Of a stretch of DNA of 64,000 bases, positions 11,580-11,875 are shown piece by piece (the first letter of the stretch is position 1; the number at the start of each line of letters is the position of its first letter). The position numbers were made by a program, and so were the translations under genes. The notes beneath the pieces are model-generated. The model did not search any database. It had not been told where the DNA came from and saw only the letters and a list, made by a program, of their open reading frames with translations. The stretch lies in NCBI RefSeq assembly GCF_054482525.1, contig NZ_CM137006.1; one strand, 5' to 3'.

Positions 11580-11656
11580 TGGTTGCGGGGGCCGGATTTG
11601 AACCGACGACCTTCGGGTTATGAGCCCGACGAGCTACCAGGCTGCTCCACCCCGCG
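11580..11656 (-). tRNA. metV: Initiator tRNA-fMet (anticodon CAU), copy 3 of 3
   Basis: Reverse complement is CGCGGGGTGGAGCAGCCTGGTAGCTCGTCGGGCTCATAACCCGAAGGTCGTCGGTTCAAATCCGGCCCCCGCAACCA with encoded CCA; which copy carries which gene name is assigned by position only. Confidence 0.93.
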
Positions 11657-11688
11657 TCACCGTACTGCTTTATTTCATCAAATTTGAT

Positions 11689-11765
11689 TGGTTGCGGGGG
11701 CCGGATTTGAACCGACGACCTTCGGGTTATGAGCCCGACGAGCTACCAGGCTGCTCCACCCCGCG
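11689..11765 (-). tRNA. metW: Initiator tRNA-fMet (anticodon CAU), copy 2 of 3
   Basis: Identical 77-nt sequence; 32-nt spacer to neighbouring copy. Confidence 0.93.
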
Positions 11766-11798
11766 TCACCGTACTGCTTTACTTCATCAAATTTTAAT

Positions 11799-11875
11799 TG
11801 GTTGCGGGGGCCGGATTTGAACCGACGACCTTCGGGTTATGAGCCCGACGAGCTACCAGGCTGCTCCACCCCGCG
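11799..11875 (-). tRNA. metZ: Initiator tRNA-fMet (anticodon CAU), copy 1 of 3 (promoter-proximal)
   Basis: Identical 77-nt sequence; 33-nt spacer to neighbouring copy. Confidence 0.93.

Follow-up and report, generated by a model that had tools for sequence, protein, structure and literature searches.

The three tandem tRNA genes at positions 11580-11875 of the 64-kb window (the window being the whole stretch of DNA analysed here) are almost certainly the metZ-metW-metV (metZWV) operon of E. coli, in which one promoter yields a tricistronic precursor and the array undergoes concerted evolution. The locus in the window is an ordinary member of a fully described system and, as such, already known; it is not a variant of that system. 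In this analysis, we establish the anatomy of the array, its initiator elements, its identity with the K-12 locus, and its conservation and synteny.

Anatomy and identity of the array

ARAGORN detects exactly 3 tRNA genes in the 64-kb window. Each is a tRNA-Met gene with a CAT anticodon, and all lie on the minus strand, a detail that was missing from the initial annotation. The claim of 3 identical tandem initiator tRNA-fMet genes at 11580-11875 is exact to the nucleotide according to ARAGORN, Rfam, the initiator elements and the K-12 annotation. Each gene matches Rfam RF00005 with 61.4 bits (gathering score 29), and a script comparison confirms that the three 77-mers are mutually identical. 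Transcription runs from high to low coordinates, with the promoter at the high-coordinate side and the terminator at the low-coordinate side. The first-transcribed and mltA-proximal tRNA-fMet1 gene, metZ (11799..11875, minus strand), was called by ARAGORN and Rfam RF00005, has 77 nt including an encoded CCA, and is 100% identical to its K-12 counterpart. It is followed by a 33-nt internal transcribed spacer (11766..11798, minus strand; AUUAAAAUUUGAUGAAGUAAAGCAGUACGGUGA) that is the same as the K-12 spacer, and then by metW (11689..11765, minus strand), the second tRNA-fMet1 gene. The metW-metV internal transcribed spacer (11657..11688, minus strand; AUCAAAUUUGAUGAAAUAAAGCAGUACGGUGA) has 32 nt and departs from K-12 by one G>A substitution and the loss of 1 nt. 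The series of tRNA-fMet1 genes ends with the third, metV (11580..11656, minus strand); both metW and metV were assigned via ARAGORN, Rfam RF00005 and the K-12 gene order.

On the tRNA strand, the 32-nt spacer reads ATCAAATTTGATGAAATAAAGCAGTACGGTGA and the 33-nt spacer ATTAAAATTTGATGAAGTAAAGCAGTACGGTGA, so that the repeat units measure 109 and 110 bp. The two spacers are 2 substitutions and one 1-nt indel apart, in agreement with the initial description of an approximately 110-bp unit with spacers that differ at 2 to 3 positions. Tandem Repeats Finder reports the same structure at 11576-11877 (period 109, 2.8 copies, 97% matches, score 583). Among the mechanically listed ORFs, none of interest overlaps the array.

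The ARAGORN label is limited to "tRNA-Met, anticodon cat" and does not distinguish an initiator from an elongator tRNA-Met or a tRNA-Ile2(CAU); the identity elements were therefore read straight off the tRNA sequence. There is a C1xA72 mismatch at the end of the acceptor stem, where Infernal also flags the first pair as non-canonical. The established formylation determinants G2:C71, C3:G70 and A73 are all present, as are an A11:U24 pair and the anticodon CAU. The anticodon stem has three consecutive G:C pairs (G29G30G31:C39C40C41), the importance of which has been described (PMC3017606). All three copies carry G46, i.e., they are of the fMet1 isoacceptor type and not of the A46 type of K-12 metY (fMet2), position 46 being where the two isoacceptors differ (PMC3017606). 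With all hallmarks present, the three genes encode the bacterial initiator tRNA. That they would instead be elongator tRNA-Met genes, or tRNA-Ile2 genes with a CAU modified to lysidine, is a reading to which the unspecific ARAGORN calls give some room, but it has practically no chance of being correct: the initiator-specific C1xA72, the three anticodon-stem G:C pairs and A11:U24 are in place, and the K-12 genes metZ, metW and metV, annotated as initiator, have the identical sequence. Both elongator candidates were rejected, since a Watson-Crick 1:72 pair is missing and the three anticodon-stem G:C pairs are present. Given the 100% identity to the characterised K-12 genes, the initiator tRNA encoded in the window is probably formylated and used at the P site during initiation.

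The array sits between mltA and amiC, is encoded opposite to both of these neighbours and is transcribed away from mltA. In K-12 MG1655 the order is mltA, metZ (b2814), metW (b2815), metV (b2816) and amiC, and the tRNAs are annotated as "tRNA-initiator Met(CAU)". The E. coli K-12 metZWV operon shares with the window the locus, the orientation, the three identical 77-nt genes, the promoter hexamers, the terminator and spacer 1. Over the 579-nt intergenic region there are 4 real differences from K-12, which leave the genes, the promoter hexamers and the terminator unaffected. Two of these make up the 32-nt allele of spacer 2 (the G>A change and one A fewer); the others are an A>G substitution ahead of the promoter and an additional A in a hairpin at the amiC side. 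The spacer-2 allele of the window is found exactly in 510 of the 5,192 E. coli genomes matched by a 72-nt spacer probe (approximately 10%), the identity band of at least 99% being equivalent to an exact match for a probe of this length. This minority allele is the sole local peculiarity of the array in the window.

A locus probe of 751 nt finds a match in 5,425 of the 5,426 complete E. coli genomes. It is 100% identical to strain 2012C-4221, the record of which annotates three tRNA-Met genes at exactly the positions found in the window. Via this record, the gene order reads recC-ptrA-recB-recD-argA-amiC-[3 tRNA]-mltA-tcdA-csdEA, which is ordinary core genome and the same order as in K-12. Over its first 50 kb, however, the window departs from 2012C-4221, so that it stems from a close relative and not necessarily from this strain.

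Promoter, terminator and expression

The metZWV promoter was read from the sequence at 11889..11916 (minus strand), with a -35 hexamer TTGCAT (11916..11911), a 16-nt spacer and a -10 hexamer TATAGT (11894..11889). Between the -10 hexamer and the 5' end of the first tRNA lies a 13-nt stretch (11888..11876) with a GCGC discriminator; GC-rich discriminators are typical of stable-RNA promoters. An A8 tract directly upstream of the -35 hexamer (11919..11926, minus strand), also seen in the sequence, is possibly an UP-element-like sequence. A generic sigma-70 consensus scan did not call the metZWV promoter, because the -35 hexamer TTGCAT fits just 3 of 6 positions. The promoter was therefore placed by eye and by identity to K-12, where both hexamers are the same, together with published primers and mutations (PMC3017606). 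The knockout primers of that study match both flanks of the array exactly, with one of them spanning the promoter exactly, and two down-mutations map just upstream of and within the metZWV -10 box (PMC3017606).

At the other end of the array, the terminator scan places the intrinsic terminator of the operon at 11544..11573 (minus strand), with the structure GAACACCC-UAAC-GGGUGUUU followed by a U-run. Its 8-bp stem at 11573..11554 has a folding energy of -11.8 kcal/mol (z = -2.2). The scan finds one terminator-like site after metV and none in either spacer, as expected from the single terminator proposed initially, so that the array appears to form an operon with a single promoter and a single terminator. 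A second hairpin, AAAAAGGCGCTGAATGGCGCTTTTTTT, is located at 11508-11535, flanked by A/T runs and placed between the stop codon of amiC and the terminator downstream of metV. It resembles a terminator acting in both directions, which would serve amiC and act as a backup for metZWV. The A-run of this hairpin is where the window has one A more than K-12.

For the transcription, processing, dosage effect and sRNA binding of metZWV we draw on the literature, and expression, processing and formylation of the genes in the window are proposed on the strength of their identity to the characterised K-12 genes. From a single sigma-70 promoter, transcription would yield one tricistronic precursor, with its end at the one intrinsic terminator. 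RNase P would then separate the units and mature the 5' ends of the tRNAs, metZ metW metV being among the RNase P-dependent polycistronic operons (PMC7049720). RNase E is believed to cleave where each spacer or trailer begins, in an A/U-rich stretch, and a one-step RNase E cut is believed to mature the 3' end of the fMet tRNAs (PMC7049720). The three identical tRNAs released in this way would account for approximately three quarters of the initiator tRNA of the cell, with gene number setting the dosage. In support, metZWV provides the bulk of tRNA-fMet, and tRNA levels track gene number (PMC3017606). In a strain without metZWV, approximately 25% of the initiator tRNA is left and growth is approximately 20% slower (PMC8248024), while low initiator abundance leads to cold sensitivity and relaxed initiation fidelity (PMC3017606).

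The freed spacers would, as reported, have RybB and MicF as their sRNA partners, with Hfq binding to the precursor. Both internal metZWV spacers co-purify with RybB and MicF (PMC4583644), and the full-length metZWV precursor binds Hfq in competition with HqbA (PMC10710024). Both spacers of the window keep the 8-nt sequence AAAGCAGU, which is complementary to nt 4-11 of RybB. The RybB and MicF duplex energies with each spacer are no better than those obtained with 500 shuffled spacers (the fraction at least as good is 0.11 to 0.44), so that for a sponge role we rely only on the published experiments.

Several known systems resemble metZWV in part. The metY gene (tRNA-fMet2), which opens the metY-nusA-infB operon, codes for the same initiator tRNA; in K-12, position 46 is the sole difference between the metY and metZWV tRNAs, and in E. 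coli B the two are identical (PMC3017606). However, metY is a single gene at another locus, outside the window, and is co-transcribed with protein-coding genes, whereas the genes in the window have G46. The valV-valW and leuQ-leuP-leuV operons likewise carry several identical tRNA genes within a single transcript and appear beside metZ metW metV in a list of RNase P-dependent operons (PMC7049720), but they encode elongator tRNAs and lie at other loci. Finally, 3'ETS-leuZ is likewise a spacer transcribed as part of a tRNA precursor and pairing with sRNAs, and the metZWV spacers were found by the same MAPS approach. It differs in being a 3' external spacer, with RyhB and RybB as binding partners, while in metZWV there are two internal spacers for which RybB and MicF are reported.

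Evolution of the array

The initial annotation took the perfect identity of the three copies to imply ongoing gene conversion, a claim that stands in part. We scanned 100,044 species-representative genomes for a pattern of two fMet genes 15 to 45 nt apart and recovered 67 loci. Nearly all Enterobacterales arrays recovered adjoin mltA and/or amiC, and most have three copies. Arrays beside mltA/amiC are present in Escherichia, Salmonella, Citrobacter, Enterobacter, Klebsiella and Kluyvera, and further in Yersinia, Dickeya, Edwardsiella, Serratia, Xenorhabdus and Tatumella. The shared neighbourhood indicates that the array is orthologous and old. Most of the syntenic Enterobacterales arrays contain the same 77-mer unchanged, for which purifying selection is enough; the identity of the tRNA bodies on its own thus does not imply gene conversion.

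The spacers, by contrast, do point to homogenisation. Among 25 syntenic three-copy arrays (300 pairs), spacer identity is 0.83 within an array, compared to 0.64 for orthologous spacers between species and 0.63 for cross comparisons, and the within-array value exceeds the orthologous one in 88% of the pairs. When 30 arrays were analysed by spacer half, the effect was strongest in the 3' part of the spacer (0.81 within arrays versus 0.62). The spacers therefore show concerted evolution, with paralogues more alike within a genome than orthologues are between species. We propose that the tRNA bodies would be held constant by purifying selection, and that the spacers would be partly homogenised within lineages via gene conversion and/or unequal crossing-over, or else via contraction and re-expansion of the array. 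Position-specific spacer starts, ATTAAAAT for spacer 1 and ATCAAA for spacer 2, are kept in 12 of the 30 arrays across several genera, showing that homogenisation is partial and not rapid. Inside E. coli the order is reversed, with orthologous spacers (0.98) more alike than paralogous ones (0.92).

An explanation in which purifying selection on an ancient triplication keeps the three copies identical, with no conversion or array turnover, would account for the constancy of the 77-mer in most syntenic arrays of many genera and for the conserved position-specific spacer starts; in addition, the published sRNA and Hfq binding provides a possible spacer function that could constrain the spacers. 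We nevertheless consider it unlikely, as it is at odds with spacers that are far more alike inside an array than at orthologous positions. Three observations within E. coli likewise argue against it. In ATCC 25922, two adjacent copies, metZ and metW, have the same C17A change, in an allele that is rare (matched at 99% identity or more in 71 of 5,425 genomes). The E. coli spacer-2 alleles that were recovered carry all four combinations at two polymorphic sites, and some E. coli records have two identical spacers. The shared C17A, the four spacer-2 combinations and the identical-spacer arrays are hints of exchange within the array, and concerted evolution of the spacers remains our preferred reading.

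The scan also brought up several deviations in other genomes. Arrays of Citrobacter, Klebsiella and Kluyvera have a first gene that differs by a compensatory change, G52A/C62U, within a pair of the T stem. An inserted element lengthens spacer 1 to 112 to 171 nt in some Enterobacter, Citrobacter, Atlantibacter and related genomes. In one retrieved locus (approximately 7180-7350 of that locus), for example, the spacer-1 insert matches the ERIC2 primer sequence with 3 mismatches, where 0 matches are expected by chance. This indicates an ERIC/IRU-like repeat inside the tRNA operon spacer of that locus; the array of the window has no ERIC/IRU-like spacer insert. Arrays labelled Ferrimonas balearica or Marinobacter nauticus have 5 to 6 fMet genes and 111- to 113-nt "spacers" that contain a diverged tRNA-like copy. 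Two such records, labelled as different genera and with similar isolate names, have identical spacers, which may reflect mislabelling or contamination.

Copy number, assembly reliability and islands at metV

The initial annotation also flagged the array as a hot spot for copy-number change at which assemblies could collapse or expand. Copy number was determined with the 72-nt spacer-centred probe, which includes too little tRNA at either side to seed a match by itself; the places per genome of long queries are unusable for this purpose, because shifted registers add places. The 72-nt probe matches 5,192 of 5,426 E. coli genomes at 10,260 places, with a maximum of 6 per genome. Two spacers, corresponding to three copies, are present in 58 of 60 systematically sampled genomes, and three copies in approximately 90% of E. 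coli genomes, making the window standard in comparison with other strains. No inter-tRNA spacer, i.e., one copy or none, was found in 234 of 5,426 genomes (4.3%), and only one spacer, i.e., two copies, in at least 124 genomes; a few genomes have up to approximately seven copies. As an example, strain GF60 has a single tRNA gene with normal amiC and mltA flanks. A query with a synthetic one-copy allele matches 226 genomes, a figure that combines one- and two-copy arrays, covers only island-free loci and is thus a minimum that does not describe a distribution.

Artefacts of assembly do occur at the metZWV locus. In ST648 CP008697, a single "N" replaces the array between an intact metZWV promoter and the island-side terminator (2975-2990 of the retrieved locus) and is an assembly gap exactly at the repeat. 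The WP*-ESBL series makes up 5 of the 13 one-copy records listed, with others supplied by the ETEC40xx series, and the DH5alpha assembly CP076470 has 2 copies. Such structural variants cluster partly by sequencing project and may be real variation, artefact or both. In 557 genomes, spacer 2 is within one mismatch of spacer 1. BL21(DE3) CP081489, XL1-Blue CP081007 and E. coli C CP029371 have three genes separated by two identical S1-type spacers (positions 1124-1420 of the retrieved loci), and the identical-spacer arrays listed include a block of laboratory strains, derived from K-12 as well as from B, whose accession numbers are adjacent. By contrast, C43(DE3) CP011938, JM109 and C600, which belong to the same lineages, have a K-12-type spacer 2. 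The identical spacers in laboratory strains are either a polishing artefact or the result of very recent gene conversion. However, the two-copy state is common to pairs of closely related strains, and LF82 is among the identical-spacer genomes, suggesting that some of the variation is probably real.

The expected disagreement among assemblies is thus borne out, whereas the window itself shows no sign of collapse. A three-copy structure produced by collapse or expansion of a different true array could be suspected from the gap in CP008697, from the enrichment of the WP*-ESBL and ETEC40xx project series in one- and two-copy calls, and from the disagreement between BL21(DE3) CP081489 and C43(DE3) CP011938 over spacer 2. 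For the window we consider this very improbable and have rejected it: 58 of the 60 sampled genomes have the same three copies, MG1655 included, and the 751-nt locus probe has its 100% match in an independent complete genome. Moreover, the two spacers of the window differ at three positions and are each anchored one tRNA away from unique sequence, so that reads of approximately 100 nt or more resolve the structure. The array in the window is therefore read as a genuine three-copy operon.

Immediately downstream of metV (11571-11579), similarity to the window breaks in approximately 1,960 of 5,425 E. coli genomes (approximately 36%), and an island begins. This insertion at the metV flank is the metV island already known under the names PAI-CFT073-metV and ETSS2. 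The metV flank of ATCC 25922 carries genes for type VI secretion (a cluster with tssB and tssC) in place of amiC. In several other genera amiC is missing beside the array, which suggests the same hot spot. In the window, there is no genomic island at the metV 3' flank.

For the window itself these results carry little weight, as this is a textbook core-genome locus. The operon is important in that it supplies most of the initiator tRNA of the cell, and its dosage has effects on growth, on cold sensitivity and on the fidelity of initiation (PMC3017606; PMC8248024). The metV 3' flank is, in addition, a frequent insertion point for islands. Public "complete" genomes represent metZWV inconsistently, with collapsed arrays, homogenised spacers and an N gap, so that comparative counts of initiator tRNA genes need checking at the level of reads. 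We regard it as doubtful that the E. coli structural alleles (1 to approximately seven copies, identical spacers, mosaic spacer 2 and shared C17A) are real and arise frequently. If they are, the dosage of initiator tRNA and the sequence of the sRNA-binding spacers would be adjusted very quickly by unequal crossing-over and gene conversion at metZWV, to the point of differing among laboratory derivatives of a single strain.
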